Origin: Candidatus Omnitrophota bacterium
GTDB taxonomy: Bacteria; Omnitrophota; Gorgyraeia; 1-14-0-20-64-10
Assembly (NCBI GenBank): GCA_016177405.1
Contig: JACOVG010000006.1
Location: forward strand, 10,064-74,063
DNA length: 64,000 nt
Direction of reading: 5' to 3'
The translations under genes and the position numbers were made by a program. Shown piece after piece: positions 1 to 64,000 of this stretch (the first letter of the stretch is position 1; each line of letters starts with the position of its first letter). The notes under the pieces were generated by a model. The model was given only the letters and a program-made list of their open reading frames with translations. It searched no databases and had not been told where the DNA came from.

Positions 1-466
1 GGACGTCGACCGGATAGAGGTGTCCTTTCCACTCGACGAGGGCGAGCATCGTGGTCTCCCGCGTGCCCTTGGCGTTGAGCACCACGGTGCCTGCGGGTAG
101 ACCCGAATAGCTCGCCAGCAGGGTGAAGGCTTCCGTCCGCTGGTCCGAGGCCCCGTATCCCCGCAGGATGATGTGAAGCGGGTGGTCGTCCACAATTGGG
201 AACCCCTCGGGGACGGACCGTACGTTCTCGCTCACCCAGGCGAGAATCCGCTCGATCTTTTCTTCAAACCCCTGCCCCGGCGAGGTGACGGACTCCGCGA
301 CACGCTGCGTCTGCCAATGGCGGCTTACGAAGTGGACGGTCTTCTCGGCGAGCGTCAACCGGTGAGAGGTGACCACAAAATTCACCCCTACCCGAGTGGT
401 CACCGGCCACAGGGCAATCCCGGCGACCCCGCAGGCCAAGGCCAGCGTGATGAGGGCCTTCTTCAT
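1..466 (-). CDS. Partial CDS (3' end beyond window): signal/TM-anchored protein with transglutaminase-like core; paralog of 27846..29048
   Basis: Minus-strand ORF open to window edge; ATG at 466 forms ATGA overlap with stop of 463..2337; N-term MKKALITLALACGVAGIALW (signal/TM); segment ILRGYGASDQRTEAFTLLASYSGL parallels VRGIGWCDQKVWTVGTFLSLTGV of the downstream paralog (Cys replaced by Ser). Confidence 0.45.
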   Translation of the reverse strand, partial: MKKALITLALACGVAGIALWPVTTRVGVNFVVTSHRLTLAEKTVHFVSRHWQTQRVAESVTSPGQGFEEKIERILAWVSENVRSVPEGFPIVDDHPLHIILRGYGASDQRTEAFTLLASYSGLPAGTVVLNAKGTRETTMLALVEWKGHLYPVDV

Positions 467-2337
467 CCGGGACATGGGGCCAGCCGAATGGAATCGAGCG
501 TTTTGAGAATCGGACGATTCTCCACCGGAGGAAACGGCAGAGGCCGCGGCCGCGGTTGAGCGAGGAAGGAGCGGACCTGTTGGGCCGCCCCCTCGGGCGT
601 CTCAAAGCGGCTTAGGGCAGGCTGAAACACCGACAGGGCCGAGGGCCTAAGGTTTAACCCGCGGTAGAGCAGCAGATGGAAGGGGACCCCTGCCAGCGCC
701 GTTTCGTACAGCGGGGTCGATGGAAAATCAAGAATGACGCGGTTGGCCCAGGGAAGCCACAGCGGGAAGGGAGATCGGGAAACGATCAGATGTTTTTTTC
801 CCGACCGGGCCACCCATTGGGCCGCCGAGCTCTCCGCGGGATCCTGCGAAGGAAAAAGCTTGATGATAAAGAGATAATCCGGAATTCCCGCGAAGGTCTC
901 GAGGAGAGTTTTTTGGAGCCGGCCATACCAGGTGGGGCTGTAATCGGCCCGGTGCAGGCGGTAGAAGTCCGGCTCCGGCTTATGGAGCGGGTAAACCACC
1001 ACGGGCCGCTCGTCCGGGAGCCTTAGCCGATTTCCCCAGCGCTGAAGATGCCATCCCGGCTGCCGGGCTAAGCGGGCGTACCGTTTCCACCGGTCGGTTC
1101 CCACGTGGATTTTCGCGCAGGGCCGTTTGGCCGAAAGAGCGCGCTCCTTGAAGTAGCCGGCGAATTCTCCGTTCGGGACAAAGTAGTGCTGGCTCCGAAA
1201 GAGCTCGGTCAAGTCCCAGCTGGGCGCCTCCTCCGGGCCGTCCCCATCGGCGATGTGCACCGACTGGGTTTTTTCGGAAGATGCGCAGGCCGCCACGGCC
1301 GGAAATTGAAGGCCTTGAGCGATGGCTGGGGTGATGACAAAATCAATTTTCCATGCGTCGTAGAATTGTCGGAGGGAAGAGGTTTTCTGGGTCACCTTCG
1401 GCAGGAGGTCCCCCGCCCATCCGGCGAGGAGAGGAGACAGCCAAGGCCTCACGGATACGCCAAACCAGCTTTGGGGCCGATCCCAGACGGGGCTGTCGGC
1501 GGCCGAAAGCTCCTGCGCGGCGCGCAGCCAGCGAGAGGATGAATCGGACTTCCTCGGAAGGGCGTCGGACCAAAGGGTTCTCCCGCCCTCGGATAAATCC
1601 AAGATCCGATCCCCGCTGGCCAGGAAGCACCGGTGTCCGGCCTCGAGGGCCTCTTTGAGGAGGTCCTTGAGGTAATGGTCCGATTCCAGGAAAAGGAGCG
1701 TCAACCGCTCGCCTGACCTGGAAGGTGATAAGGCTCCCTGGATTTTCCAGAGTCCCCGCTTGAGGGCTCTCCGGAACGGCTGGCCGGCCGCGGCGCGGCC
1801 AACGGCAGGCCGTGACCCCGCCCCGTCTGCAGAGGAGATTAGCCTCTCCATGGGCAGGCCCTCTTTCTCGCAGAGGGTGCTTGCCCACCAGGCATAAAGA
1901 CCGGGGGCCGACGCGCAGAGGTTTTCGAACGGCTCATCCCAAGCGGCGGTTCGATCCGCCCGGGGGCAGAAGACAACGTCCTTGCGCTCCTCCTTCAGGA
2001 GTTGGTGGATCTCCAGACCGCGGGCATAGAGATTGTCGAGCAAGGTCTTCCAGCAGTAGCCAAAGAGCAAGGCCGGACGAAGGCGCAGCTCATCCAGCTC
2101 CGGAAGGCGCCGGATGAGCCCCTCGTCCAATTCGTCCAGCCATTCCAATTGCCTGCTCCAAAGGGAGGACTCTTCACGACGGAGCGCTTCTTCGACGCCG
2201 TAGTCCCAGGTAATCCGGTGGGGCACCCCCTGGGCCTCCAGGGCCCGCTGGGCGCTGGTGGAGAGAGCCACCGCGGTATCCCCCGAAGAGAGGTTCAGGT
2301 TTCCGGGTACTCCCTCCAGAAGGAAGAGCCGCTTCAT
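463..2337 (-). CDS. Hypothetical protein (624 aa), likely polysaccharide-biosynthesis associated; no motif recognised
   Basis: Long uninterrupted minus-strand ORF, co-directional and stop/start-coupled with neighbours (ATGA at 463-466); no recognisable catalytic motif by eye. Confidence 0.5.
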   Translation of the reverse strand: MKRLFLLEGVPGNLNLSSGDTAVALSTSAQRALEAQGVPHRITWDYGVEEALRREESSLWSRQLEWLDELDEGLIRRLPELDELRLRPALLFGYCWKTLLDNLYARGLEIHQLLKEERKDVVFCPRADRTAAWDEPFENLCASAPGLYAWWASTLCEKEGLPMERLISSADGAGSRPAVGRAAAGQPFRRALKRGLWKIQGALSPSRSGERLTLLFLESDHYLKDLLKEALEAGHRCFLASGDRILDLSEGGRTLWSDALPRKSDSSSRWLRAAQELSAADSPVWDRPQSWFGVSVRPWLSPLLAGWAGDLLPKVTQKTSSLRQFYDAWKIDFVITPAIAQGLQFPAVAACASSEKTQSVHIADGDGPEEAPSWDLTELFRSQHYFVPNGEFAGYFKERALSAKRPCAKIHVGTDRWKRYARLARQPGWHLQRWGNRLRLPDERPVVVYPLHKPEPDFYRLHRADYSPTWYGRLQKTLLETFAGIPDYLFIIKLFPSQDPAESSAAQWVARSGKKHLIVSRSPFPLWLPWANRVILDFPSTPLYETALAGVPFHLLLYRGLNLRPSALSVFQPALSRFETPEGAAQQVRSFLAQPRPRPLPFPPVENRPILKTLDSIRLAPCPG

Positions 2338-2900
2338 TCTGGACCCGGGGGGAAGCGCTTAAGGAATTCCTCCCGAAGCAGGCCGTACTCCAAGAGGTCA
2401 AGGTAGCTGTTCTGCTTGAAAAGGGCCTGCCGGCGCCGGCCCTCCTCCCGCATCCCGAGATGGGCCGCGAGCCCGCGCATGGGCATATTGCTCGCCGATG
2501 TCCCGCAATGGATCCGATGCAGGTTGAGCGATCTGAATCCGTGGTCCAGCAGGAGCCGGGCCGCTTCCTTGGAGTAGCCCTTGCCCCAGCAGTCCTTCTC
2601 ACCGATCAGAATGGCGAATTCCGCCAGGCGGTTCACCCAGTCGATGTTCTGCAGGGAGATGTTTCCGATGTGGCGCCCGCCGTCCGTCAGCGTGACCGCC
2701 AGCACCAGGTCGTTGGGCGAGGCCAGCATCTTTTTGACGTACCTGACCGCATCCTCCGGACGGTACGGAAAGAGGTGGTGGCCGTTGTGCCGGCAGACCT
2801 CCGGGTCGTTGAGCCAATTCAGATAGGCCCCGTCGCAGTCCGCCTCCGTCAAGGACCGCAGGAGAACCCGCTTAGTTTGCAGGAACGGCGGCGGCGTCAT
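2334..2900 (-). CDS. GNAT-family N-acetyltransferase (RimJ/RimL-like)
   Basis: ORF 2334..3041 trimmed to internal ATG at 2900 (MTPPPFLQTKRVLLRSLTEADCD...); GNAT-like core VLAVTLTDGGRHIGNISLQNIDWVNRLAEFAILIGEKDCWGKGYSKEAARLLLDHGF; upstream extension would overlap amidase gene. Confidence 0.7.
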   Translation of the reverse strand: MTPPPFLQTKRVLLRSLTEADCDGAYLNWLNDPEVCRHNGHHLFPYRPEDAVRYVKKMLASPNDLVLAVTLTDGGRHIGNISLQNIDWVNRLAEFAILIGEKDCWGKGYSKEAARLLLDHGFRSLNLHRIHCGTSASNMPMRGLAAHLGMREEGRRRQALFKQNSYLDLLEYGLLREEFLKRFPPGPE

Positions 2901-4302
2901 GGGGGACTCGTGCGGGGTTGGAGAGGATCCCTTTGGGAAACGGATTCGGGGCCGGCGGCAGGCAGCCCGCTTGAGCCAAGGCCCGGACAAACCGAAAAAG
3001 GTCCAGGTCGTTGTAGCGCCGGCAAACCACCTGGGCGCCAAAGGGAAGACCGTGGGGGCCCGTGAAAACCGGCAGGCTCATTGCCGGAACGCCTCCCAGC
3101 GTCCAGATCAAGCAACTGTCCGGGCGGTCAGGGGCGGCCAGTCCGGGAAGGGGCTCCCCGCCCGTGGAGAGGGTCAGCAGCATGTCCCACCCGGAAAGAA
3201 ACCATTGGTCCAGCGCCCCGGCCAGCTCCTCCTGCCGCTGGAGCGCGCCGAGATATTTCTCCAGGCCGATCCCTCGGCCCTCGGCAATCATGGCTTTCAG
3301 GATGGGGCTGACCAGGGCCTCCTGAAGGGCTTCTTCCTTAAAGTAGTAGGCGAGGGTTCTGCAGTAGATGATTTCATGAAGGGCGTGAGCCTCCTCAAGG
3401 CCGGGCGGCCAAGGGGCTTCGTGGAGCTCCACGCCCGGCAAGGTCGAAAGCCGCTCGCTGAAGCGGAGCAGGGCGTCCTGGGCGTAAGGCTCGGCATCAT
3501 TCCACTTGGGGCCCCGCACCCATCCCACCCGCCAGGGGCGATCGGCCCTCCGATGACGGGAGCGGTCGGTCATGAACCGATGCACCAAGGGGTGGTCCGG
3601 GCCCCTGACCCGCGTGGTTTCCAGAAGAAGCTCAAGATCCTCGACGGATCTGGCCATGAAGGCGATGGTGTCCAGCGAATCGGTGGTTTTGAGGGATCCG
3701 GTTCTTGGGATGAGTCCGAAAGAGGGTTTGTAGCCATAAATCCCGCAATAGCTGGCGGGCCGTATGGTTGAGCCGGCCGTTTGAGAAGCCAGGGCCAACG
3801 GGACCATGAAGGCGGCCACCGCCGCGGCGGAACCGCTGGAGGAGGTTCCTGGGCTGTAGTCCGGATGGTGGGGATTCACCGTTGGACCGGGAGCGTGCAC
3901 CGCGAACTCGGCGGTGACGGTCTTCCCCGGCAGGACAGCCCCTGCCTGGCGAAGGTTAAAAACCACCCGGGCATCGTTGCCAGGCGTGTAACCGGCGTAG
4001 ATGGGGCTGCCCATGGTGGTGGGCATGTCCTGCGTGTTGAAGATGTCCTTGATCCCCACCGGAATGCCGGCCAGGGGGCCAGGGTCCTTCCCCTGGCGCA
4101 GGGCTTCATCGACGGCTCTCGCTTGAGCCAGGGCCAGAGAGGGATCGAGGTAAGCCCAGGCCTTAAGGGAGGGTTCCAGGCGCTCTATCTGCGTCAGGCA
4201 AGCCCGGGTGAGGGCCTCCGAGGTCAAGGCCCCTTCTCGGATGCGCCGCAGCGCCTGGGTGGCGGTGAGCCGCTGGAGCGGGGTTTCTTCCGCGGGGCTC
4301 AT
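2872..4302 (-). CDS. Amidase-signature (AS) family enzyme, GatA-like amidase/glutaminase
   Basis: 476 aa; AS signature GGSSSGSAAAVAA (here GTSSSGSAAAVAAF) and Ser-cisSer-Lys context (GIKDIF...K); ATG at 4302 overlaps stop of upstream gene (ATGA). Confidence 0.8.
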   Translation of the reverse strand: MSPAEETPLQRLTATQALRRIREGALTSEALTRACLTQIERLEPSLKAWAYLDPSLALAQARAVDEALRQGKDPGPLAGIPVGIKDIFNTQDMPTTMGSPIYAGYTPGNDARVVFNLRQAGAVLPGKTVTAEFAVHAPGPTVNPHHPDYSPGTSSSGSAAAVAAFMVPLALASQTAGSTIRPASYCGIYGYKPSFGLIPRTGSLKTTDSLDTIAFMARSVEDLELLLETTRVRGPDHPLVHRFMTDRSRHRRADRPWRVGWVRGPKWNDAEPYAQDALLRFSERLSTLPGVELHEAPWPPGLEEAHALHEIIYCRTLAYYFKEEALQEALVSPILKAMIAEGRGIGLEKYLGALQRQEELAGALDQWFLSGWDMLLTLSTGGEPLPGLAAPDRPDSCLIWTLGGVPAMSLPVFTGPHGLPFGAQVVCRRYNDLDLFRFVRALAQAGCLPPAPNPFPKGILSNPARVPHDAAAVPAN

Positions 4303-5516
4303 GCCGAAGGTCTTCCTCCGGTTTCCTCTTTGGCCTTGCCCTCAAGAAACTTCACGATCGCCGGTTTTACCTCAAGTTCGGTCTGCGCAGGACGCGGCGC
4401 CTCCCGCGCGGGATAATCGCTTGGCAGATCGAGGGCCTTTCCCTCCCGCTTGGCCTTGAGGGTCTCAATGAATTCACGCTCGGTCATCCCGGTGATCTTC
4501 AGGTAATAATCCAGCGCGGCGGGCCGCTTGGAATCCTCCTCCCGGGCCAGCGCGAAGCCCTCTTCCCGGGTGAGCAGCCCAGCTCGGACGTCCGCGCTGG
4601 CGTGGTCGGTTCCCCGCCCGAAGCCGCGCTTGATGAATTTGGCGTAGTCGTGAACGCCGGCCATGACGCACTCGACGCTCTTGTAGCCCTTGTAGGTGCC
4701 TTCCACATGGTCCTCCCGCCAGCCGTAGGTCTTCTTCACGAACTCCATCTGGCGCTCCTCATCCCAGAAAATAAAATTGCTCAAGTGAATCCCCACGACA
4801 CCGGAACGCTCAATCTCCTCGCGCGAGGGGAGCTGGAAGAGGCTCATGTCCCGGAGAGAGATTTGGTCATCCGCCATCGCCGGCGGTTCGAACCGGGCCG
4901 AGTACTTCACAAAGTAATCGCGGTCGTATTGGGTGACTTGAGCGCGGTAGTCTCCCCTTCCGTCCCCTTCGGAGACGCTGTCGCCCCAGACCAGGAGCCG
5001 CACCCCGAACTTGACGGCCACCTGAAGGGGAAAGGCCCCCACCCCCATGTGGCAGTGCCAACAGGCGTCGCCGATCGCCCCCAGGGATTTCCGGGCCAGT
5101 TGATTGACAAGCCGGCGGTTGGGGGTGAACATGATGTGATCCACATCGAATTTCTCCAAGGCGTTGTAGAGGTTGTAAAGCCCGGTCTCCGTGTACCAGT
5201 TGTGATTGAAGGTGACCGCCAGGGGCTTGAGCCCATAAACGCGGGTCAGCACATGGAGCTGGAAGGTGCTGTCCTTCCCGCCGCTGATGGGCACCATGCA
5301 GTCGTAGTTTTGGCCGGTCTTATCCCGATACTTCTCAAAGAGCTGGCGCAGCGTCTTCTCCCGGCTGGCCCAGTCGATCCGCATCTTCTCCTCCTGGGCC
5401 CGGCAGGCGGTGCAGATGCCCATCTCATCGAAGGCGACCCCCTCGAGCGTTTCGGGCAAGCAGCAGCGCGTGCAGTATTTCAGAATGCCGGAGTAGGGTG
5501 GACCAGTTTCAGCCAA
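4299..5516 (-). CDS. N-acetyl sugar amidotransferase (PP-loop ATP pyrophosphatase; WbpG/WbuX/PseA family)
   Basis: PP-loop motif VPISGGKDST; N-terminal zinc-ribbon-like KYCTRCCLPETLEGVAFDEMGICTACR typical of this family; probable TTG start at 5516 with GGAGGG SD 8 nt upstream (ORF track start 5576 would overlap DegT by 68 nt). Confidence 0.8.
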   Translation of the reverse strand: MAETGPPYSGILKYCTRCCLPETLEGVAFDEMGICTACRAQEEKMRIDWASREKTLRQLFEKYRDKTGQNYDCMVPISGGKDSTFQLHVLTRVYGLKPLAVTFNHNWYTETGLYNLYNALEKFDVDHIMFTPNRRLVNQLARKSLGAIGDACWHCHMGVGAFPLQVAVKFGVRLLVWGDSVSEGDGRGDYRAQVTQYDRDYFVKYSARFEPPAMADDQISLRDMSLFQLPSREEIERSGVVGIHLSNFIFWDEERQMEFVKKTYGWREDHVEGTYKGYKSVECVMAGVHDYAKFIKRGFGRGTDHASADVRAGLLTREEGFALAREEDSKRPAALDYYLKITGMTEREFIETLKAKREGKALDLPSDYPAREAPRPAQTELEVKPAIVKFLEGKAKEETGGRPSA

Positions 5517-6843
5517 GGGGCGGCCCTCCGACGGTCTTTGCCACTTTTTCGATCGCCCGCGCGATGTCCAGAACATCCTCCAGGAGATGGGGAGGCCTGA
5601 CCCATTCGCTCACCAGCATCTGGTGCTCGTAAAGCTTCTCGGCGTTGGGACAGGTGCCGGGCGCGTAGGTGGCGCGGCTGCCCAGGTTCTCCGGGGCGCT
5701 GAAGGGGTAGCCGTGCTTGAAGAGCCGTTTGGTTTGGTAGATCGGCTGCAGGTAGAGAGGACGGGTGTACCCCTGCGTGAAGGGAACGCCCTCGGCCCGA
5801 AGGGCCTGGGCGAATTCTTCGCGGCTTATCCCGCACCGTTCCGGCAGGAACCGCAGGGGGTACAGGTAATAGGCGCTCTCGCAGTCCTCGCAGCCTGACT
5901 CACCGAACGCCCGGTGAGGACAGCAAGGCGGCGGCACCAGAAACGGTATCCGGGAAAGCCGCTGGCTTAGGGCCTTAACGTACCCCTGACGAACGGCATT
6001 GAATTTCTTGAGCTTCTTCAACTGCTCAAGGCCGATGGCCGCCGTCAGCTCCGTGGGCCGAAGATTGAAACCCAGCAGGTTGGTGCCGTCGGCGCAGCCC
6101 GCCTCTTCCATCACCGCCTCGGCGTGGTTTCGAATGAGCGCCAGGCGCTTCCTCAAGCCCTCATCGCCGGTGACGCACAGGCCCCCCTCCCCGGCTTGAA
6201 TGGTCTTGTTGACGTTGAGGCTGAAAACGCCAATGTCCCCGAAGGTCCCCACCGGCTTACCCCGGTATTTGGCTCCGTGGGCCTGGGCGCAGTCCTCGAT
6301 GATTTTCAGACCGCGGCCGCGGGCCAACTGGAGGATGGGATCCATGTCGGCCGGTATCCCGAATTGATGAACCACCACGATCGCGCGCGTCCGATCCGTC
6401 AGACGGGCCCGGATCGACCCGGGGTCGAGAGAGCCCGACTCAAGTTTGACGTCGGCGAAAACTGGAATGGCTCCGTACACCAGGGGGCAGGAAGCCGCCG
6501 CCGACATCGTGTAGGGGGAAACGATGACCTCGTCGCCGTATCCCAGCCCCAGGGCGCCGATCGCCGCGATGAGGCCTGAAGTGGCGCTGTTCATGCCGAC
6601 GGCGTACCGGATTCCATAAGCCTCGCACCAGGCGCGCTCCAGGGCCTGCACCCTGGGGCCGCCCCAGAAGCTGAAAGGCGGTTCCGGAGCATGGGAACCT
6701 TCGAAGAAGGAAAGGACTCCTCGCTCCATGGCCTCCCGCACGGCCCGCTTCTCCTCTTCCCCCAGGGTGAGGTTTTCCATCCAGGGCCGGGTTCGGACCG
6801 GCGGCCCGCCATGGATGGCCAAGGTGTCAGGATCGGGCCGCAT
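5509..6843 (-). CDS. DegT/DnrJ/EryC1/StrS-family PLP-dependent sugar aminotransferase
   Basis: 444 aa; family core AVGMNSATSGL...VIVSPYTMSAAAS...FSLNVNKTIQAGEGG (PLP-Lys); alternative ATG at 6780 (MENLTLGEEEKR) also possible. Confidence 0.8.
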   Translation of the reverse strand: MRPDPDTLAIHGGPPVRTRPWMENLTLGEEEKRAVREAMERGVLSFFEGSHAPEPPFSFWGGPRVQALERAWCEAYGIRYAVGMNSATSGLIAAIGALGLGYGDEVIVSPYTMSAAASCPLVYGAIPVFADVKLESGSLDPGSIRARLTDRTRAIVVVHQFGIPADMDPILQLARGRGLKIIEDCAQAHGAKYRGKPVGTFGDIGVFSLNVNKTIQAGEGGLCVTGDEGLRKRLALIRNHAEAVMEEAGCADGTNLLGFNLRPTELTAAIGLEQLKKLKKFNAVRQGYVKALSQRLSRIPFLVPPPCCPHRAFGESGCEDCESAYYLYPLRFLPERCGISREEFAQALRAEGVPFTQGYTRPLYLQPIYQTKRLFKHGYPFSAPENLGSRATYAPGTCPNAEKLYEHQMLVSEWVRPPHLLEDVLDIARAIEKVAKTVGGPPLG

Positions 6844-7840: not shown

Positions 7841-8585
7841 TTCGCAGCGCTTTCCACCGCCTGGGAACGGTTTGGTTTCGACGGGCCAGCTCCGGGTGGT
7901 CGAGCAAGAAGTCGATGATTTCACCCAACCCGAATCCGGGCCGCCTCGGATAAAAATGCTCGTACACGGCGGAGACCACCTCAAAATCTTCCTCGGTGTC
8001 CACCTCCAGGTGAAACTTCGGCTGCCGGTGCCAGGGCGGAGCTTCCAGGTTGCACAGCCTGAACCGGTCCGGGTATTGTGTGATGTTCCAGCCGGCATGG
8101 GACCGGCGATCCGCGTCGGCCACAAGCCGTTCGGTCTCAAGCAAGACCCTGGCCGGATAAACGAAGACCTCCATCCCCGGCGGATAGGTGGTCGTCAGGC
8201 CATTGGTCACGTAGTCGTAGCGGTCCAGATTCTTCAGGGCGAATCCCGTCACCGCGTCCACCAAGAGAGGGTCGGGCATGGGGTTGTCCCCCATGAACTC
8301 GACATGGAGATCCACCGAGAAGGCCTTGAGCGCTCCGGCCACCCGGCCCAAAACATCCTCCTCGCTGCCCCGGAAACAGGGAATGCTCAAGCGCGAGGCA
8401 AGCTGCGCCAGGGGATCGTCCCCGGCCTCGGTGGAAGTGGCCAAGATCACCTCGTCAATCAGCCGGCTGCGCCGGATCCTCTCGATCTGGAGCTCCAGCA
8501 TCGGCATCCCAAGGATGGGGCGCAGGACCTTGCCCGGCAGCCTGGAAGATCCCATCCGGGCCTGGACGGTGGCCGAGATCCTCAC
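7830..8585 (-). CDS. Cytidylyltransferase, SpsF/acylneuraminate cytidylyltransferase-like (GT-A nucleotidyltransferase fold)
   Basis: N-term ISATVQARMGSSRLPGKVLRPILGMPML is the classic CMP-sugar synthetase (SpsF/NeuA/KdsB) phosphate-binding signature; 251 aa. Confidence 0.65.
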   Translation of the reverse strand: MRISATVQARMGSSRLPGKVLRPILGMPMLELQIERIRRSRLIDEVILATSTEAGDDPLAQLASRLSIPCFRGSEEDVLGRVAGALKAFSVDLHVEFMGDNPMPDPLLVDAVTGFALKNLDRYDYVTNGLTTTYPPGMEVFVYPARVLLETERLVADADRRSHAGWNITQYPDRFRLCNLEAPPWHRQPKFHLEVDTEEDFEVVSAVYEHFYPRRPGFGLGEIIDFLLDHPELARRNQTVPRRWKALRNEA

Positions 8586-52577: not shown

Positions 52578-52578
52578 C

Positions 52579-57609: not shown

Positions 57610-58440
57610 CTACGGCCGGGAAGCGGCAGGCGGACCCGGAACGGGAATGACCCTAGAGAGAACGAGATCGACCAGCCTTGGAAAAACCCCATGAATCCGA
57701 ACGAGCACCTCGGAGGGGGTCCATTGGATCACCGTGCGGGATCTGCGCTCGATTCCCCGAATGATCTTCTTGGCGATCCTGGCAGGGTCTTGCCTTTTCA
57801 CGGTTTGATCAAAACCGACCTTGAGGTTCCCGTGCCGGGTGGTGGTTTGGTACAGATTGGACTCCGTGGGGCCCGGTGATACCATCATCACGTTGATGCC
57901 GAAGGGGGCCAGCTCCAGCCGGAGGCCCTCGGTGAGGGCGTTCAAGGCGAACTTCGTGACGCAGTAGCTGACCTTCCCCGGGAAGGCCCTTCGGCCCATC
58001 GTGGTGGAGAGGTTCACGATCTGGCCGTCCCCGGCGCGCTTCATCCCGGGGATGAGCGTCTGGATCAGAGCCAGCGGCCCATAAAAGTTCACGTCGTGGC
58101 AGGCCTTGAAGTCCTCCAGGGGAACGTCCTCCACCAGACCCTCGACCCCCCGGGCGGCCGAATTGATCAGCACATCGACCGCTGCCAGCTCCTGCTGGAT
58201 GCGTTGGGCCGTCTGGCGCGTTTGGCCGGCATCGGCCAAATCGCAGACGTAGGTCCTGGCGCTGCCTCCCATCCCTTGAATCTCCTGGCCTATTCGCGAC
58301 AGGCCCTGGGCATCCTTATCCAGCAGGGCCAGCCTCGCTCCTTCCCGCGCGGCCTCGTGGCTTAGGGCCCTGCCGATCCCGGAGGCCGCGCCGGTGATCA
58401 GAACCACCCTGCCCTTAAGCGGGTACAGAGGTTTTCTCAT
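57610..58440 (-). CDS. SDR-family oxidoreductase
   Basis: GRVVLITGAASGIGRAL; NSAA; YCVTK. Confidence 0.8.
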   Translation of the reverse strand: MRKPLYPLKGRVVLITGAASGIGRALSHEAAREGARLALLDKDAQGLSRIGQEIQGMGGSARTYVCDLADAGQTRQTAQRIQQELAAVDVLINSAARGVEGLVEDVPLEDFKACHDVNFYGPLALIQTLIPGMKRAGDGQIVNLSTTMGRRAFPGKVSYCVTKFALNALTEGLRLELAPFGINVMMVSPGPTESNLYQTTTRHGNLKVGFDQTVKRQDPARIAKKIIRGIERRSRTVIQWTPSEVLVRIHGVFPRLVDLVLSRVIPVPGPPAASRP

Positions 58441-59797
58441 GGCGCGAGTCCACGGGGTGAGCCCCGGGTGCCGGCGAAGGGTGAAGCTCGAAGTAGCGGT
58501 TGACCACCTCCGCGATGTATTCCATTTGCCTCAACGAAAAAGAGTTGTGGATGGGCAGGAAAACCGTGTTTTGCTTGATCCGCCGGGCGCCCGGAGTGGA
58601 GGCGGCATAGGCGGCAAAGGCCGGTTCCTCGGAGCAGAGGGCCAAGGCATAGCCCCCGTTGTCAATGCCGGCCAGCAAGAGGAACATCTGGAATTGTCCG
58701 GGCTCCTCCGGAACGACCAGCGGGTAATGCCAATAGACGTTTCGATTCGCTCCCTCATCGACGGAGGAGGGGACCCACCGGCGCGCCTGGCGGCTCAACC
58801 GCGCCGTGAGATGGTGCGCCAACCTTCGGCGCTCGTCGGTCAGCGCCCTGCTTCTCTTCAGTACCCGAAGAAGGAGATCGCTTTGCAGATCGCACAGGTA
58901 CGTGAAGGCCGCCGGCGGCATTTCGCTTCGGAGGATACGGGGGTTGGCCTCAAACGGGAGAATTTCGGCGGCTCCCTTGCGGGGATCGCGCTTGGCCTCC
59001 TGAAGCGCGTTGATCATCGCGGGCTTGCCCCGGCAGACCGCCAAGACCGCGTGGTACGTCAACAGCGAGAAGACGGTTCGATGGGTCGCCAGATTGAACT
59101 TCAGGTTGGCCAAGATCTGACCCAGGAGAAAGCCCTTATCGGGCCGGGTGAGAAGCCCCTGGGCCAGGGAGCGGATCTCCGCGGCCATCCGGTCATCGTT
59201 GGTCAGCACGACCCCTCCCGCCAGCGACGCGAGGGTTTTTCCGATGGAAAAGCTTCCCACCGCGGCCGCCCCAAGCGTTCCGAGAAGCTGGCCCCCGGCG
59301 CGCGCGTCCCAGTTCTGCGAGATGTCCTCCACAAGAGCCAGACCTGCCCGGCGAGCCTCTTCGGCGATTGCCTTAAGATCCTGCGGGACCAATCCCGCCA
59401 GATGGGTGACCAGGAGGACGCGGCTTCTGGGGGTGATCTTCCGCTTAAGGTCCTCCAGATCGATGTTTTGGGCCTCTGGGGAGAGATCGACAAAGACCGG
59501 CTTAAGCCCGAGGGTGTGGATGGCGTTGACCATGTCCGGAATGGTGAGAGGGGTCATGAGGACCTCGTCCCCCTCCCGAAGCTTCAGGACCTTTAAGACC
59601 AGATGGAAGGCGAGGCGGCAGCTCGAAACCGTCTGCGCGTGCCTAAACCCGCAATGCGCGGCCAGTTCCGCTTCGGCCCGCCCTGTTTTCTCCCCGCGCC
59701 CAAGGCGGCTGAAGGGCAGCAACGCCAGGGCCCTCAACAATCCGAAGGTCGGCAGATACAGCCTGGCGCGCGGGATCTTGACGAATGGAACGCTCAT
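58415..59797 (-). CDS. DegT/DnrJ/EryC1/StrS-family aminotransferase (long form)
   Basis: ALVEDISQNWDA...GAAAVGSFSIGKTLASLAGGVVLT (PLP-Lys). Confidence 0.75.
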   Translation of the reverse strand: MSVPFVKIPRARLYLPTFGLLRALALLPFSRLGRGEKTGRAEAELAAHCGFRHAQTVSSCRLAFHLVLKVLKLREGDEVLMTPLTIPDMVNAIHTLGLKPVFVDLSPEAQNIDLEDLKRKITPRSRVLLVTHLAGLVPQDLKAIAEEARRAGLALVEDISQNWDARAGGQLLGTLGAAAVGSFSIGKTLASLAGGVVLTNDDRMAAEIRSLAQGLLTRPDKGFLLGQILANLKFNLATHRTVFSLLTYHAVLAVCRGKPAMINALQEAKRDPRKGAAEILPFEANPRILRSEMPPAAFTYLCDLQSDLLLRVLKRSRALTDERRRLAHHLTARLSRQARRWVPSSVDEGANRNVYWHYPLVVPEEPGQFQMFLLLAGIDNGGYALALCSEEPAFAAYAASTPGARRIKQNTVFLPIHNSFSLRQMEYIAEVVNRYFELHPSPAPGAHPVDSRHEKTSVPA

Positions 59798-59846
59798 CGT
59801 AAACCTTTATTGTACCACCAGCGCTTGCCGGCGCAGATCCCAAATG

Positions 59847-60539
59847 TTACCTTTCAAGGACCAACACCCTAAGGTGAGTGAAGGCGTACTTGAGAAGCTT
59901 CCACCCCGAAAGCTTCCGGGCGTTGCGTTCTGGGGGCCACCGAAGAATGGCGGGCAGATCCAAGGAACGGAAACCGCGCGCGTAGGCCTTCACCAGGATC
60001 TCCAAATGAATCTCCTTGTCGTCGGATCTCAAGTTCAGGGTTTCCAGAACCTCTCGCCGGTACGCTCGGGTCATCCCTGAAACCGCCGTGGTCTTACGAC
60101 CCACGGCCGCGCTCAAGGAGCGGTTGGCCAAACGGCTCAACAGCCTCCGGCCCCAAGGAACCCCCTCCATCCGGCCGCCGGCCATATGAACCGAGGCGAT
60201 GGCGATGCCGGTCTCACCCGTGCGGACCGACTGGAAGAGTGACCTCAAGATATCGGTCCCCCAGGTCAGATCCGCTTCGGTCGAGACGATGGTTTGGCCC
60301 CTGGCGGCGGAAAACCCCTGACGCAGGGCGTACCCCCTGCCCCGATTGGGGTGATGGCTCAACAGCCGGACCTCCGGGTAATCCTTTGAGACGGCAGAAA
60401 CCAGAGCGGCCGTGCCATCGCTGCTCCCATCATCAATGGCGATCAGCTCCCAGGCGCAGCCCCAAGCCTTCAGCGACTGGATCAGCCGGCGGAGGTTCTC
60501 CCGAATGGCCGGTGCCTCGTTGTACATCGGCACCACCAC
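59847..60539 (-). CDS. GT2 polyprenyl-phosphate sugar synthase (DPM1/CsbB-like)
   Basis: GTG cluster at 60533-60539 (VVVPMYNEAPAIRENL) 8 nt after upstream stop; IAIDDGSSDGT; short DPM1-like GT2. Confidence 0.7.
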   Translation of the reverse strand: MVVPMYNEAPAIRENLRRLIQSLKAWGCAWELIAIDDGSSDGTAALVSAVSKDYPEVRLLSHHPNRGRGYALRQGFSAARGQTIVSTEADLTWGTDILRSLFQSVRTGETGIAIASVHMAGGRMEGVPWGRRLLSRLANRSLSAAVGRKTTAVSGMTRAYRREVLETLNLRSDDKEIHLEILVKAYARGFRSLDLPAILRWPPERNARKLSGWKLLKYAFTHLRVLVLER

Positions 60540-60546: not shown

Positions 60547-61671
60547 TCAGGCGGGAAGGGAGGGCTGGACGTGGCAGGATTCCTGCAGGAGGTGCTGGAC
60601 AATCCGGGAAGCGGCTTGGCCGTCCCAAAGGGGCGGCGGGCTTCCCCGGAAAGAGGAGCCCCCAAGCTCCAAGGCCTCCCGGCAGGCGAGCCGGATGGCC
60701 TCTGGGGAAGTTCCGGCCAGGCGGTTGGTTCCCAGGCGGAGGGTCACCGGCCGCTCGGTGGTTTCCCGAACCGTCACGCAGGGGATCCCCAAATAGGTGG
60801 TTTCCTCTTGGACCCCTCCGGAATCGGTGACCACGAGAGCCGCCTCCCGCATCGCCTTCAAGAAATCGAGGTAGCCCAACGGTTCGGTTCGAAGAATCCC
60901 GGACAAAGGGCCGGCCTGGAGCGCCGTTGCCAGCAGCGCCAAGGATCGATCCGTCCTGGGGTGAACCGGAAAGAGGACCGGCATCCGGGTCCGGAGCCCA
61001 TCCAGGGCTCCCAAGATCCTGGAGAGGGTCCCGGGGTCGTCGACGTTCTCGGGCCGATGCAGGGTCAGCAGGGCGTAGGACTTGGGCCGAAGGTTCAGCC
61101 CGCACGGTCCCTGGGCGCGGTCCAGCCGGTCAAGTCCCCAAATCAGAGAGTCGATCATCACATTGCCCACCTGGCGGATCCGTTCCTCCGGGACCCCTTC
61201 CCGGCGGAGATTCTCGTCCGCTTCGTCCGAGTGGGTGAACAGCAGCCTCGAGAGACGGTCGGTCTCGATTCGATTGATCTCCTCCGGCATCCGCCGGTCA
61301 AAGGAGCGCAGGCCCGCTTCCACGTGAGCCACGGGTATCCCACGCTTGCTGCAAGCCAAGGCGCAGGCCAAGGTGGAATTGACATCCCCCACCACAATCA
61401 CCCAGGCCGGCTCTTCCTGCTCGAGAACTCGCCCAAACCCCTCGAGGATTCCGGCCATCTGCCGGTCGCGCGGCCCGGAACCGACCCCCAGGTTGATCAC
61501 AGCCGGCGGCACCTCCAAGTCCTTGAAAAGGCGCTCCGACATCTGGAGGTCGTAGTGCTGGCCCGTGTGGACCAGCCGGTGAGAAACGCCGGGGGCGTCC
61601 TTCAGCACCCTCGCAAGCGGCGCCACCTTCATCACGTTGGGCCGCGCCCCGACCACCGAGATGATTTTCAT
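60547..61671 (-). CDS. UDP-N-acetylglucosamine 2-epimerase family (WecB non-hydrolysing / NeuC hydrolysing)
   Basis: ATG 61671 (MKIISVVGARPNVMKVAPL); HTGQHYD and HVEAGLRS signature motifs. Confidence 0.85.
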   Translation of the reverse strand: MKIISVVGARPNVMKVAPLARVLKDAPGVSHRLVHTGQHYDLQMSERLFKDLEVPPAVINLGVGSGPRDRQMAGILEGFGRVLEQEEPAWVIVVGDVNSTLACALACSKRGIPVAHVEAGLRSFDRRMPEEINRIETDRLSRLLFTHSDEADENLRREGVPEERIRQVGNVMIDSLIWGLDRLDRAQGPCGLNLRPKSYALLTLHRPENVDDPGTLSRILGALDGLRTRMPVLFPVHPRTDRSLALLATALQAGPLSGILRTEPLGYLDFLKAMREAALVVTDSGGVQEETTYLGIPCVTVRETTERPVTLRLGTNRLAGTSPEAIRLACREALELGGSSFRGSPPPLWDGQAASRIVQHLLQESCHVQPSLPA

Positions 61672-61690: not shown

Positions 61691-63211
61691 TCAATGAAAA
61701 ACGGGCTCGGCAAGGTTTTGGCGGACTTCGAACGTCAGGCGGGGTTTTTCGGGCAAAGGGATCTTGGGGTTCAGGACGGTGGACAGGTCGAATTGAAGCC
61801 ACTTCTCCCATTCGGCGCTGTGGCCGCTCCGGCGCAGCCGCTCAAAAAAGAAAAAGGCAAATGCGGCCGCCAGATCCCGCAGCATGGCGAGGTTGCGCAA
61901 TCTCTTGAGCTGTTTCACAATCGCGCGCGGCCTGGAGTAGAACTTCCAGAAGGCGAACCTCTCGAAGCGGTTGACCTCTTCGGCGCTTAAGTGGTTGAGC
62001 CGGAAAACCACTTCGTTTTGTCCGTAGCGGCTGTACTCCTCGTGCAGCAGCCGCCCCTCCGACTTGAACTGCTCGAAGATCACCGTGCCCGGGTAAGGGG
62101 TCATGACCGACAATTGGAAGAAATCCAGATCCAGATCTATGGCAAATTGCAGGGACTCCCGCAGGGTGTCTTTCGTCTCATTGACATGTCCGATGATGAA
62201 GGAGCCCCGCACCTCCAGGCGGTTCCGGTGGGCCACCTCCACCACGCGCTGGTAGACCTCGTGCTTGATCGGTTTTCCGATGGCCGCCATCAGGGTCTTG
62301 CTGCCCGATTCGATGCCGATCATCACCTGGTGGCAGCCGGCCGCGGCCAACGCCTTCGCCATCTCCTCATTGAACATGTCGCCCCGCACGCAGCAGATCC
62401 AGCTTAGGTCGATCTTTTCCTCCGCCATGCGGCGGCACAGATCCAGAACCGCGCGCCGGTTGACCGTGAAGGTGTCGTCGTAGAAATAGATCTGCCGGAT
62501 GCCGTATTCGGCGCGCAGGCACTTTAAAAGCTCGATCATCTTCTCGACGCTCCGTGAGCGCAGGGTGGTGTTGGCGGAGTTGCAGAAGGTGCATTTGCCC
62601 GGGCAGCCCCGCGTCATGAGGACATTCATCGCCGGCAGGTCCCGGTAGCTGGAGACCGGCGGAAAGTAATCGTCGAAATCCACCAGATGATAGGCGGGCA
62701 GAGGGTAGCGGTCCAGATCCATCTCTATCTTGCGCGGTGGATTGTGGACCACTTGGTCTCCCACGCGGTAGCTCAAGCCTTCGATCTTCTCCCGGGCGGT
62801 CCCCCGCGCGAGCTCGGTCATCAGCATCTCCCCGTCGCCCCGGCCCACCGCGTCGATGGAGGGGTTGCGAAGCATCTCTTCGGGATGGGCCTCGGCGTGA
62901 ACCCCTCCTGTCACAACGGTCACGTCGGGAACCTCTTCCTTACAGATGGCGGCGATGTAGTTGGCCGGCACGTAATGGGGGCTTAGGACCGTGATCCCGA
63001 CCAAGCGTGGGCGCAGCCGCCGGACAATGGCGCGGAAACCACCGGGGCCCATCTCGCGGGCGTGGCAATCCACCACGTGCACCTCGAAGCCCTGCGCCTC
63101 CAGGCAGGAGGCCATCGACAATATCCCCAACGGGGGGAGCATCTTCTTGAGCTTCGAGCGGAAGCTGTAGGTGACCCACGGCGGATAGACGAGCAAGACG
63201 TCCGCCCTCAC
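61691..63211 (-). CDS. Cobalamin (B12)-binding domain radical SAM enzyme (class B)
   Basis: CPGKCTFC radical SAM motif; B12-binding N-terminal domain (VLLVYPPWV...LGILSMASCLEAQGFEVHVVD); probable GTG start 63211 with GGGAG SD 9 nt upstream (ATG 63334 alternative would overlap HAD gene by 85 nt). Confidence 0.8.
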   Translation of the reverse strand: MRADVLLVYPPWVTYSFRSKLKKMLPPLGILSMASCLEAQGFEVHVVDCHAREMGPGGFRAIVRRLRPRLVGITVLSPHYVPANYIAAICKEEVPDVTVVTGGVHAEAHPEEMLRNPSIDAVGRGDGEMLMTELARGTAREKIEGLSYRVGDQVVHNPPRKIEMDLDRYPLPAYHLVDFDDYFPPVSSYRDLPAMNVLMTRGCPGKCTFCNSANTTLRSRSVEKMIELLKCLRAEYGIRQIYFYDDTFTVNRRAVLDLCRRMAEEKIDLSWICCVRGDMFNEEMAKALAAAGCHQVMIGIESGSKTLMAAIGKPIKHEVYQRVVEVAHRNRLEVRGSFIIGHVNETKDTLRESLQFAIDLDLDFFQLSVMTPYPGTVIFEQFKSEGRLLHEEYSRYGQNEVVFRLNHLSAEEVNRFERFAFWKFYSRPRAIVKQLKRLRNLAMLRDLAAAFAFFFFERLRRSGHSAEWEKWLQFDLSTVLNPKIPLPEKPRLTFEVRQNLAEPVFH

Positions 63212-63249
63212 TTTTTTCGGCTCCCAGGTGATAACGTTCTTCCGGAAAC

Positions 63250-63891
63250 TTATCGGGATGCCCCCCTGAAATCCCGGATGACCGGAAAGGAACCGTTCCT
63301 TAAGCCGCGGCAATGAACCCCAATGAAGCGGCATCCGGCCTTGTGGGCGGCCCGGGCGTCCTCCGGAGTGTCACCAAAAAAAAGGATTTGGGATGGTTTG
63401 AGATTCTTCTTCATACATAACTTGTTTATCCACAATGATTTATCAACAGGCGCGCCGCGTACCATCTGGAAGAATGGCCGCCAGCCGCGCGCAGACAGAA
63501 TCTTAAGCAGGATGGGGTGGGGGGTCGCCGAAAGCAGGGCGGTCAGATGCGTCGGGTAAACGGCGGCCAAGAAGGCTGAAGCCCCGGGAATCTCCGGAGC
63601 CTGAATGATGGGCTGGGTCGTTGCCTCCTCAAAACGCTTCAAGAGGTCTTTCCTTACGCCCGCGGTGTACGGCCGCTTAAGAATAGAGCGATACACATGG
63701 CGGAATTTCTCCCACCGGGGCGTGTGCGGATAACCGTTGCAGTAGTTGAGAATCTCCTTCAAGTGCTTGGCCTCATCCAAAAAGCAGGTCTTAAACGCCC
63801 GCCTCTTGATCGGATTGGAATCCACCAGCGTCCCGTCAAAGTCGAAGACCAAAGCCTTGGCTTTTTTAAGCCAGGCCCGCAAGTCAAGCAC
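63250..63891 (-). CDS. HAD-superfamily hydrolase (phosphatase)
   Basis: ALVFDFDGTLVDS (DxDGT motif I), LFFGDTPEDARAA (motif IV GDxxxD); GTG start 63891. Confidence 0.7.
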   Translation of the reverse strand: MLDLRAWLKKAKALVFDFDGTLVDSNPIKRRAFKTCFLDEAKHLKEILNYCNGYPHTPRWEKFRHVYRSILKRPYTAGVRKDLLKRFEEATTQPIIQAPEIPGASAFLAAVYPTHLTALLSATPHPILLKILSARGWRPFFQMVRGAPVDKSLWINKLCMKKNLKPSQILFFGDTPEDARAAHKAGCRFIGVHCRGLRNGSFPVIRDFRGASR

Positions 63892-64000
63892 CTCTTCTGG
63901 CGGCAGGCAGAGGCGCTTGGGGCGCGAACAGCCGGATCAGGGCACGCATCCTTTCGCCCCATTTCCAAAGCAGGAAAACGTCGGAAGCCAGCACCAAGAA
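63884..64000 (-). CDS. 3' fragment of an upstream CDS extending beyond window (unknown product)
   Basis: Minus-strand open frame ...FLVLASDVFLLWKWGERMRALIRLFAPQAPLPAARRGA* ending with TGA at 63884-63886, overlapping HAD start; no identification possible. Confidence 0.25.
   Translation of the reverse strand, partial: FLVLASDVFLLWKWGERMRALIRLFAPQAPLPAARRGA

Follow-up and report, generated by a model that had tools for sequence, protein, structure and literature searches.

The stretch of DNA analysed here, hereafter the window, comprises 64,000 nucleotides of a Candidatus Omnitrophota bacterium (assembly GCA_016177405.1, contig JACOVG010000006.1, positions 10,064 to 74,063), and is filled by a single co-directional array of genes that runs on beyond both of its ends. 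From the gene families present, we consider it likely that this array is a chromosomal lipopolysaccharide (LPS) core/O-antigen-type surface-glycan mega-locus of Candidatus Omnitrophica, of which the window is the central 64 kb. Coordinates are those of the window, negative ones and those above 64,000 lying outside it.

The window and the array that contains it

Long open reading frames (ORFs) of the minus strand tile the whole window, at a GC content of 0.60-0.64. They amount to 59 complete genes, an 82-aa ORF included, and two genes truncated at the ends, all on the minus strand. Coding evidence was taken from a codon log-odds model and from database gene calls on identical metagenome contigs. 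The gene calls, made independently, place every gene on the same strand as the window chain, and the codon model gives 0.26 +/- 0.05 for the minus-strand genes against about 0 for the ten longest plus-strand ORFs. The latter (up to 727 aa) are without match in a Pfam search, and represent the antisense shadows typical of GC-rich DNA. When 58 ORFs of the chain were searched against Pfam, and also against NCBIfam, sugar-metabolism families were matched (in one or the other) by 49 of the window's minus-strand ORFs. ARAGORN finds no tRNA in the window, which is also devoid of sizeable repeats, and no transposase or integrase domain is found among its scanned products (Pfam).

Starting from proteins near the window ends, and then from exact database copies of flanking proteins, the array could be followed upstream to coordinate 93,401 and downstream to -9,866, i.e., on the same strand for at least 29 kb and at least 10 kb, respectively. 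The resulting composite of 103,257 bp holds 91 genes, all co-directional, and is a lower bound, as the edges of the array lie outside the stretch covered; no JGI metagenome gave an exact DNA match to the upstream end. The initial annotation, made from the letters of the window, had described about 60 co-directional genes, no visible strand switch, tRNA or insertion sequence (IS) boundary, and locus edges outside the window. All three statements hold, and the second extends to the flanks, since no tRNA, strand switch, IS or integrase is found in the 103 kb.

Three flanking proteins are 100% identical to proteins of an NCBI 'Candidatus Omnitrophica bacterium' metagenome-assembled genome (MAG), encoded on a contig of 123,146 bp. 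About 20 Logan metagenome assemblies of groundwater samples (contigs with working labels L001-L027 and L108-L124) also contain the locus, 99.98-100% identical and without structural variants. One of the runs carrying it, SRR12113421, sampled groundwater of Modesto, California, and belongs to the data of He et al. 2021 (as cited by bioRxiv 10.1101/2024.02.19.580942). The samples share a clonal population, unlike the strain-variable polysaccharide cassettes reported from other Omnitrophota.

The genes and larger gaps of the window are given below in transcription order, from high to low coordinate, each with the basis of its assignment (aa, amino acids; GT, glycosyltransferase; SAM, S-adenosylmethionine; SDR, short-chain dehydrogenase/reductase; TM, transmembrane; SD, Shine-Dalgarno motif).

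63884..64000, minus, HpcH/HpaI-type aldolase, 3' part (271 aa; to 64699 outside); gene call, Pfam
63250..63882, minus, HAD phosphatase, 210 aa; Pfam, exact protein on record
63212..63249, minus, 38-nt gap, GGGAG 9 nt before GTG
61691..63211, minus, B12-binding radical SAM enzyme, 506 aa; Pfam
60547..61671, minus, WecB, non-hydrolysing UDP-GlcNAc 2-epimerase, 374 aa; NCBIfam TIGR00236, 303 bits vs cutoff 210
59847..60527, minus, GT2 glycosyltransferase, 226 aa; Pfam
59798..59846, minus, 49-nt gap with TGGTACAAT, without SD
58415..59797, minus, DegT-family sugar aminotransferase, 460 aa; Pfam, exact protein on record
57610..58440, minus, SDR oxidoreductase, 276 aa; Pfam
55271..57595, minus, rare polytopic membrane protein, predicted GT-C (ArnT-like) fold, 774 aa; model, Foldseek
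53611..55263, minus, soluble protein, family unassigned, 550 aa; Pfam, NCBIfam, PDB sequence searches
52579..53559, minus, weakly NanM-like sugar O-methyltransferase, 326 aa, start 53559, 53568 or 53595; NCBIfam
51921..52577, minus, SAM methyltransferase, 218 aa; Pfam
51185..51928, minus, SAM methyltransferase, 247 aa; Pfam
50080..51192, minus, NanM-like sugar O-methyltransferase, 370 aa; TIGR04371, 80 bits vs cutoff 44
49341..50093, minus, SDR, 250 aa; Pfam
48583..49344, minus, SDR, 253 aa; Pfam
47810..48583, minus, KdsB-like cytidylyltransferase for ulosonic acid, 257 aa; NF003952, 203 bits vs cutoff 193
46863..47813, minus, D-2-hydroxyacid dehydrogenase, 316 aa; Pfam
45526..46866, minus, protein without family assignment, 446 aa; Pfam, NCBIfam, PDB sequence searches
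43261..45513, minus, GT2 fused to polytopic PMT_2-like membrane domain, 750 aa, 8 TM segments; Pfam
43016..43264, minus, 82-aa ORF, two TM segments; database call, positive coding score
42243..43067, minus, sugar-1-phosphate nucleotidyltransferase, 274 aa; Pfam
41203..42252, minus, NDP-sugar dehydratase/epimerase, 349 aa; Pfam
40761..41210, minus, RmlC-like cupin epimerase/isomerase, 149 aa; Pfam
40005..40751, minus, GT2, start GTG 40751 or 40724; Pfam, translation
39085..40041, minus, SAM methyltransferase, 318 aa; Pfam
37846..39081, minus, PMT_2/GT-C membrane glycosyltransferase, 411 aa, 9 TM segments; Pfam
36630..37859, minus, NDP-sugar C-methyltransferase, 409 aa; Pfam Methyltransf_14, Methyltransf_13
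35746..36618, minus, RmlD-like 4-keto reductase, 290 aa; Pfam
34680..35744, minus, GT2, 354 aa; Pfam
32842..34677, minus, GT1/GT4-type glycosyltransferase fused to DUF218, 611 aa, backbone gene in relatives; Pfam
30975..32840, minus, AsnB-type glutamine amidotransferase, 621 aa, conserved backbone gene; Pfam, start GTG 32840
30883..30974, minus, 92-nt gap, largest of the window
29038..30882, minus, half-size ABC exporter, MsbA/HepA/PglK-like, 614 aa; Pfam, NCBIfam below cutoffs
27846..29048, minus, TPR protein, N-terminal TM segment, 400 aa; Pfam
26905..27849, minus, NDP-sugar epimerase/dehydratase, 314 aa; Pfam
25911..26924, minus, DegT aminotransferase, 337 aa; Pfam
25120..25914, minus, formyltransferase, 264 aa; Pfam
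24455..25123, minus, PIG-L-family de-N-acetylase, 222 aa; Pfam
23742..24458, minus, GT2, 238 aa; Pfam
22922..23749, minus, NeuB-family nonulosonic-acid synthase, 275 aa; Pfam, NCBIfam below cutoffs
22318..22920, minus, SAM methyltransferase, 200 aa; Pfam
21320..22321, minus, SAM methyltransferase, 333 aa; Pfam
19913..21313, minus, weakly TIGR04396-like 'surface carbohydrate biosynthesis protein', 466 aa; below cutoff
18102..19934, minus, weakly TIGR04326-like protein (Leptospira O-antigen LIC13510 family), 610 aa; below cutoff
16533..18092, minus, B12-binding radical SAM enzyme, 519 aa; Pfam
15956..16564, minus, small protein, weak methyltransferase-like match, 202 aa; Pfam
14946..15959, minus, radical SAM/SPASM enzyme, 337 aa; Pfam
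14105..14953, minus, SAM methyltransferase, 282 aa; Pfam
13368..14108, minus, PseF-like CMP-sugar cytidylyltransferase, 246 aa; below cutoff
12626..13375, minus, SDR, 249 aa; Pfam
11692..12606, minus, NDP-sugar epimerase, 304 aa; Pfam
10781..11689, minus, RmlD-like reductase, 302 aa; Pfam
9738..10805, minus, Glyco_trans_1_2 (CgeB-like) glycosyltransferase, 355 aa; Pfam
8582..9745, minus, protein without family assignment, 387 aa; Pfam, NCBIfam searches
7830..8585, minus, CTP_transf_3 cytidylyltransferase, 251 aa; Pfam, NCBIfam
6827..7840, minus, GFO/IDH/MocA oxidoreductase, 337 aa; Pfam
5509..6843, minus, DegT aminotransferase, 444 aa; Pfam
4299..5516, minus, WbuX N-acetyl-sugar amidotransferase, 405 aa; TIGR03573, 341 bits vs cutoff 203
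2872..4302, minus, amidase, 476 aa; Pfam, exact protein on record
2334..2900, minus, GNAT acetyltransferase, 188 aa; Pfam
463..2337, minus, soluble protein without family assignment, 624 aa; Pfam, NCBIfam, PDB sequence searches
1..466, minus, transglutaminase-like gene, 5' part (237 aa; to -247 outside); Pfam, gene call

The HAD phosphatase gene (63250-63882) is a composition outlier, with a GC content of 0.56 vs 0.627 +/- 0.019 and the lowest codon score of the array.

Sugar pathways, glycosyltransferases and assembly genes

In transcription order, the array can be described as four modules. Module A (93.4-74.6k, outside the window) is a nonulosonic-acid module, with a dehydratase, a DegT, two B12 radical-SAM enzymes, a PseF-like CMP-transferase and a NeuB (350 aa), followed by a GNAT, a methyltransferase, a DUF4910 protein, an ABC exporter and a GDSL esterase. 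Module B (73.5-31.0k) starts with an RmlD-like reductase, a GT2, a GFO oxidoreductase, SIS (GmhA-like) and transaldolase genes for heptose, and a GT1, and goes on with an HpcH aldolase, a HAD protein, a B12 radical-SAM enzyme, WecB, a GT2, a DegT, an SDR and the 774-aa membrane protein. Its middle part comprises O-methyltransferases, SDRs, the KdsB-like cytidylyltransferase, the 2-hydroxyacid dehydrogenase, the GT2/GT-C fusion and the 82-aa membrane ORF, together with a set for an NDP-6-deoxy/C-methyl-sugar (nucleotidyltransferase, dehydratase, RmlC-like protein, C-methyltransferase and RmlD), and it ends with GT2s, the PMT_2 GT-C, GT1/DUF218 and AsnB. Past the 92-nt gap, module C (30.9 to -0.25k) holds an ABC exporter, a TPR protein and a second nonulosonic-acid module, composed of an epimerase, a DegT, a formyltransferase, a PIG-L protein, a NeuB, methyltransferases, B12 and SPASM radical-SAM enzymes and two CMP-transferases. 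It also encodes the WbuX amidotransferase, the amidase and a GNAT. Module D (-0.26 to -9.9k), the conserved core, encodes an epimerase, a WecA/MraY-like transferase, a Wzy_C (WaaL-like) protein and a GT4, then two GT9 heptosyltransferase-like proteins, an ArnT-like PMT and a GT2.

The whole array thus described contains two NeuB genes, five CMP-transferases, numerous glycosyltransferases of the GT2, GT4 and GT-C types, two ABC exporters, about 15 methyltransferases and five radical-SAM enzymes (four B12-binding, one SPASM). The presence of the last two groups in one glycan locus would imply an extensive, uncharacterised sugar C-/O-methylation chemistry.

Several assignments are of particular weight for the nature of the locus. 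The initiating transferase (602 aa, -1272..-3080) matches Pfam Glycos_transf_4, and also NCBIfam WecA (1.9e-25) and MraY, below the equivalog cutoffs. It is an unusual fusion (Logan contig L008, 10303-12111), in which the WecA/MraY-type domain (residues 18-307) comes first and is followed, at residues 364-583, by the non-catalytic N-terminal TM/CoA_binding_3 region of WbaP-type phosphoglycosyl transferases. The Wzy_C protein (415 aa, 8 TM segments) has NCBIfam matches only to the models of IctB and of the PEP-CTERM O-glycosylation ligase, all below cutoff, and the two Glyco_transf_9 genes match the heptosyltransferase I, II and III models at 1e-15 to 1e-31, also below cutoffs; above cutoff in NCBIfam are WbuX, WecB and the KdsB-like and NanM-like proteins. 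The candidates for export in the array are two exporters with fused transmembrane and nucleotide-binding domains, of the MsbA/HepA/PglK type (below cutoffs). As would be expected of an LPS locus, the array appears to hold an initiating transferase of the WecA/WbaP type, nucleotide-sugar pathways and multiple glycosyltransferases.

The following scheme is drawn from these gene families. Cytoplasmic enzymes would produce activated rare sugars, including at least two nonulosonic acids, a Kdo-like acid and heptose, as well as 6-deoxy, C-methyl, amino, formyl and acetamidino sugars, with heavy O- and C-methylation. The WecA-like transferase would prime a polyprenyl-phosphate carrier, on which GT2 and GT4 enzymes would build the glycan, and the two MsbA/PglK-like ABC half-transporters would flip the lipid-linked intermediates over the inner membrane. 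On the periplasmic side, GT-C enzymes could decorate the glycan, and the WaaL-like (Wzy_C) enzyme could ligate it to the heptosylated core.

Two other types of locus find no support in the gene content. No PKS, NRPS, flagellin, pilin, Maf (MAF_flag10) or S-layer gene is found in the 103 kb (Pfam). A secondary-metabolite cluster is rejected, given the lack of polyketide synthase (PKS), nonribosomal peptide synthetase (NRPS) and aminocyclitol core genes, together with the presence of WecA/WaaL/GT9 genes. The array does not look like a flagellin glycosylation island either, as no product has a flagellin or Maf family match in Pfam.

The 774-aa protein (55271-57595) is without match in Pfam, NCBIfam and PDB sequence searches, and in a scan of GTDB genomes (species representatives, a set which excludes the window's own genome and in which the best AsnB match is at 65%); it has 13 relatives among 1.84 billion representative proteins. 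Its AlphaFold model (pLDDT 72, pTM 0.76) is matched by Foldseek to ArnT 5ezm (E 1.6e-6, probability 1.0), then to EmbA/B, AftD, PglB and STT3. On this structural likeness, it is predicted to be a GT-C glycosyltransferase, with a polytopic N-terminal membrane module and a periplasmic domain. PDB sequence searches with four window proteins lacking a family assignment gave no match. Finally, the 82-aa ORF (43016-43264), located between the GT2/GT-C fusion and the nucleotidyltransferase, which it overlaps by 4 and 52 nt, has a low but positive coding score and may be a small membrane partner, loosely like GtrA or ArnE/F.

Junctions, gaps and expression of the array

Junctions were established from the database gene calls mapped to window coordinates, with two starts corrected. 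In the window (60 junctions), genes overlap at 38 (by 4 nt at 15 of them, 8 nt at 8 and 1 nt at 1), 0-19 nt separate them at 17, and a gap of at least 38 nt is called at 5, for a non-coding total of 406 nt (0.63%). Over the array (90 junctions), overlaps number 56 (62%; 24 by 4 nt, 9 by 8 nt, 4 by 1 nt), gaps below 20 nt 26, and gaps of 38-126 nt eight; 82 junctions are therefore under 20 nt, and 726 nt are non-coding (0.70%), corresponding to a coding density of 99.3%.

At the 92-nt gap (30883-30974), an in-frame stop occupies 30907-30909 and no start before it is possible; this gap is thus firm, and it is the widest of the window, about twice the next. The 49-nt gap (59798-59846) is also firm, at least over 40 nt, and the 38-nt gap (63212-63249) is probably real. 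One called gap of 51 nt is ambiguous (15, 42 or 51 nt), and another, of 48 nt before a GT2 gene, becomes 9 or 36 nt after start correction: the GT2 start is GTG 40751 or 40724, because the database ATG 40712 falls inside the first beta-strand (RVAVVMPAFNAA), the strand RVAVVMP being encoded upstream of this ATG in the translation. Likewise, the 67-nt gap that the database start of AsnB (ATG 32774) would open is false. AsnB starts at GTG 32840, 1 nt past the upstream stop; its N-terminus is then M-C-G-F, and Met-Cys-Gly is obligatory at the N-terminus of class II (N-terminal nucleophile) amidotransferases. The public gene calls start too late for both proteins, AsnB being given 599 aa and the GT2 (40005-40751) 235 aa. 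The start reassignments of the initial annotation, which had assumed the GTG start of AsnB, fare well, and its view that almost every junction is an overlap or a gap under 20 nt agrees with 55 of the 60. Its 92-bp gap is indeed the largest but not the sole sizeable one, given those of 49 nt (firm) and 38 nt (probable).

An A precedes the TGA stop in 22 of 57 genes, when 4.4 are expected from third-position composition (p = 8.6e-11), a test that is independent of start-codon choice. These results show that ATGA-type overlaps are selected, beyond chance. SD-like 4-mers are found upstream of 27 of the 56 overlapping genes and 11 of the 26 short-gap genes (38/82), vs a 19% background, and upstream of 1 of the 8 genes that follow gaps of 38-126 nt (not significant).

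Within the 92-nt gap, the minus strand carries a perfect -35 hexamer, TTGACA (30945-30940), followed after a 17-nt spacer by CATGTT (to 30917); the gap also holds a unique 25-nt perfect hairpin (30924-30900; minimum free energy -36.9, z -2.5) and a 20-codon upstream ORF (ATG 30934 to TAG 30872), which overlaps the ABC exporter start by 11 nt. It has no SD, the sequence before the ATG being CT-rich and anti-SD-like. TTGACA is also found directly after the AsnB stop in an Omnitrophota relative. In the 49-nt gap, which is without SD, the extended -10-like TGGTACAAT ends 11 nt before the DegT ATG, and this gap may be an internal promoter giving a near-leaderless mRNA. Orthologous gaps of 57-59 nt before a GT1 gene, here and in the relative GCA_964373055.1 (see below), have only a GGGA motif in common. 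In this relative (L125 16631-16702), a 72-nt gap before an inserted B12 radical-SAM gene contains TTGACG-17-TAAACT, a sigma-70-like promoter candidate.

Consensus scans for sigma-70-like and for terminator-like sites give 7 sites vs 8.1 expected and 65 vs 72 expected, respectively, none of them in a junction. The best sigma-70-like match of the window (TTGACA-16-TAAAAT, 11/12; 44342-44369) falls within the gene for the 750-aa GT2 protein, on its coding strand. At gathering threshold, Rfam detects no element over 100 kb, antiterminators included; no NusG-like paralogue is found among the products of the 103 kb, and the ops motif GGCGGTAG is absent from the coding strand, being present on the non-coding strand only.

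A coordinately expressed, translationally coupled module, as initially proposed, is plausible, because ATGA overlaps are selected, terminator-like sites are not in excess and are absent from junctions, and the genes share one coherent function; stop/start overlaps in excess of chance are what translational coupling would be expected to leave. We infer that a few very long polycistronic units with internal entries are to be favoured over one operon of 103 kb. The few larger gaps carry promoter-like features and are mostly without SD, which makes a series of tandem units no less likely than one unit. In such units, about 60% of the cistrons would be coupled through the selected ATGA-type overlaps, and the rare gaps of 38-126 nt would be the probable internal entry points. 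Such coupling would keep ribosomes near RNA polymerase and deny access to Rho; with 0.7% of untranslated RNA, stoichiometry could be kept and little naked RNA would be offered to Rho.

Relatives, alternative readings and biological meaning

Composition is uniform over the array, with a GC content of 0.627 +/- 0.019 and a third-position GC content (GC3) of 0.78 +/- 0.03. In the two comparisons suggested at the outset, of codon usage with the flanks and of GC skew, the 32 genes outside score 0.258 vs 0.258 inside with a codon model trained on window genes, and the coding strand has G>C, together with T>A. No plasmid or phage similarity was found. Recent paralogues are lacking, the best pair being 37% identical, and an origin of the array by internal duplication of segments is therefore rejected.

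The closest AsnB genes (51-65% identity) belong to groundwater Omnitrophota MAGs and to MAGs labelled 'uncultured Planctomycetia'. Among the loci fetched around AsnB, nearly every gene has the same direction in those of Omnitrophota type, and orientations are mixed in the actinobacterial and Chloroflexota ones. In the relative GCA_964373055.1 (131-kb contig), two segments 11 kb apart on the same strand are collinear with the array over at least 54 kb, at 33-72% identity (about 55%), and 12 of the 19 junctions in the segment with gene calls are overlaps. The genes kept in order are DUF4910, a 709-aa protein, ABC, RmlD-like, GT2, GFO, SIS, TAL, a methyltransferase, GT1 and HpcH, continued by GT1/DUF218, AsnB and ABC, and then by DegT, GNAT, CMP-transferase and amidase. 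In two other relatives (L029, L034), AsnB directly adjoins core genes that are found 31-37 kb away here. Because the backbone is collinear in the relative and composition is uniform, the array is best read as a vertically kept collinear backbone with apparently lineage-specific inserted modules, and not as an island moving as a unit.

Several points weigh against the reading of the array as an LPS core/O-antigen-type locus expressed as long coupled units. Key LPS assignments (GT9, WaaL-like, ABC, NeuB) score under the curated equivalog cutoffs. No Wzx (Polysacc_synt), Wzy polymerase, Wzz or ABC-2 type Wzm/Wzt was recognised among the 91 products, and a Wzy_C domain does not tell WaaL from Wzy or PglL, so that a protein with it may also be a protein O-oligosaccharyltransferase. 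The array edges and about 20 kb of the 123,146-bp source contig lie beyond the stretch covered, the number of transcription units is estimated from sequence and not from transcripts, and tight packing may be a genome-wide trait of the lineage, since it is found in the relative too (12/19 overlaps) and only glycan regions were compared. The locus, or its nonulosonic-acid modules, could alternatively serve the O-glycosylation of proteins (pilin, flagellin or S-layer) instead of LPS, by means of a PglL-type Wzy_C enzyme and a PglK-type flippase. Glycans of flagellins and pilins typically contain nonulosonic acids, and the two NeuB, the five CMP-transferases, the WbuX amidotransferase, the PglK-like ABC matches and the match of the Wzy_C protein to the 'putative O-glycosylation ligase' model TIGR03097 would all fit. 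We nevertheless consider it unlikely, as two GT9 heptosyltransferase-like and ArnT/ArnC-like genes come directly after the ligase, and as none of the 103 kb encodes a flagellin, pilin, Maf or S-layer protein; the two functions are in any case not mutually exclusive, and the array may also contribute to protein O-glycosylation. Far less probable still is the horizontally mobile genomic island moving as a unit that the initial annotation had considered. Surface-polysaccharide cassettes have been reported as part of the hypervariable or mobile cargo in Omnitrophota (bioRxiv 10.64898/2026.06.07.730766), and the edges of the array, where boundaries might lie, are beyond the stretch covered. Against it stand the lack of integrase, transposase, IS, tRNA and flanking or long repeats in the 103 kb, uniform GC and codon usage, the lack of plasmid or phage similarity, the collinear backbone of at least 54 kb kept by a relative at about 55% identity, and the single clonal version (at least 99.98% identical, without structural variants) shared by about 20 samples.

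As for packing and co-orientation, they could also be traits of the whole genome, a small one shaped by streamlining and leading-strand bias, the array then being ordinary short operons placed end to end. This is a substantial possibility, although not the one we favour: the locus of the relative is equally packed, Omnitrophota-type loci are nearly all co-directional when actinobacterial and Chloroflexota ones are mixed, and G>C and T>A on the coding strand are as expected of a leading strand, but the regions compared are all glycan loci and provide no baseline, and 99.3% coding with 62% overlaps over 91 coherent genes exceeds typical bacterial averages. At the other extreme, the whole array of at least 103 kb could be one operon with a single upstream promoter and, probably, processive antitermination by a NusG paralogue or RNA element at its 5' end. 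Ninety-one genes without strand switch, 82 of 90 junctions under 20 nt, and terminator-like sites that are neither enriched nor located in junctions would agree with this, and long polysaccharide operons elsewhere use RfaH, UpxY, LoaP or EAR (PMC8191782). It is nonetheless improbable, given the eight gaps of 38-126 nt, the lack of an SD-like motif before 7 of the 8 genes downstream, the -35-like or extended -10-like hexamers in two of the gaps, the TTGACG-17-TAAACT in an internal gap of the relative, and the lack of a NusG-like gene or Rfam antiterminator in the 103 kb; moreover, the relative has different modules between the same backbone genes, which would be easier with semi-autonomous units. 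We would hardly expect, either, one or two giant mRNAs shielded from Rho by near-total coupling and not by a known NusG-paralogue or RNA antiterminator. An LPS core/O-antigen-type locus expressed as a few long coupled units is the reading we favour.

Among known systems, the closest analogue is the rfb (O-antigen) locus of Leptospira, which is also extremely large and has nucleotide-sugar, aminotransferase, methyltransferase, glycosyltransferase and nonulosonic-acid genes in common with the array; weak matches to TIGR04326 (LIC13510 family) and TIGR04396 are seen for two proteins of the array. The rfb genes appear to lie nearly all on one strand. The array differs from it in phylum (Omnitrophota vs Spirochaetota), in GC content (63% vs roughly 35-40% in Leptospira), in its ABC half-transporters with no recognisable Wzx/Wzy, in its five radical-SAM genes, and in the presence of core/ligase genes in the same array. 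The Leptospira locus can be as large as 121,402 bp, the median for pathogens being about 99.5 kb (PMC4758666). No figure comparable to the packing observed here (99.3% coding, 62% overlaps) was found for it. Enterobacterial rfb/waa operons (JUMPStart/ops, RfaH) and Bacteroides capsule loci (UpxY) are likewise co-directional polysaccharide operons, with the same enzyme classes (WecA, glycosyltransferases, WaaL, heptosyltransferases) and a need to guard against premature termination. They are typically of roughly 10-30 kb and about 10-25 genes. Unlike them, the array has no coding-strand ops motif, NusG paralogue or Rfam element in the 103 kb, and any antitermination there would be hypothetical. 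The Bacillus pks/dfn clusters, under LoaP, are transcribed as units tens of kb long, for which a processive antiterminator is needed, but consist of few giant PKS/NRPS genes, vs 91 ordinary-sized genes with overlapping stops and starts here; LoaP is listed among NusG paralogues (PMC8191782). Campylobacter pgl and flagellin loci resemble the array by their NeuB/PseI-type synthases, CMP-transferases, DegT, PglK-like ABC flippase and acetamidino-forming amidotransferase, whereas the array lacks flagellin, Maf and PglB, has GT9 and ArnT-like genes, and is several times larger. Within the phylum, surface-polysaccharide cassettes have been reported as hypervariable regions, with a worked example of 25 kb on a 2.1-Mbp chromosome (bioRxiv 10.64898/2026.06.07.730766); the array, in contrast, is about four times longer, clonal, and shares its backbone with a relative. 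It is thus a new, unusually compact case of the giant O-antigen-type loci, in a poorly known phylum, and no new kind of system.

Omnitrophota are widespread, mostly uncultured and very small, and some of them are attached to, or prey on, other microbes. In a phylum with chromosomes or contigs reported at 0.78-3.76 Mbp, to devote more than 100 kb to a surface glycan is unusually costly, and would take up several percent of a genome of such size. The predicted glycan would be very elaborate, heavily methylated and rich in nonulosonic acids, and likely mediates interactions with hosts or phages. The locus also holds several families almost without known relatives, such as the 774-aa GT-C enzyme, and five radical-SAM enzymes whose sugar chemistry is uncharacterised. 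The array is, finally, a natural test case for the expression of about 100 genes in register, and for whether translational coupling alone can preserve long transcripts. If it were expressed from one or two mRNAs, it would, to our knowledge, rank with the longest bacterial operons on record and with those richest in genes, and 3-10% of a small genome, possibly that of a host-attached nanobacterium, would be one cell-surface expression unit.

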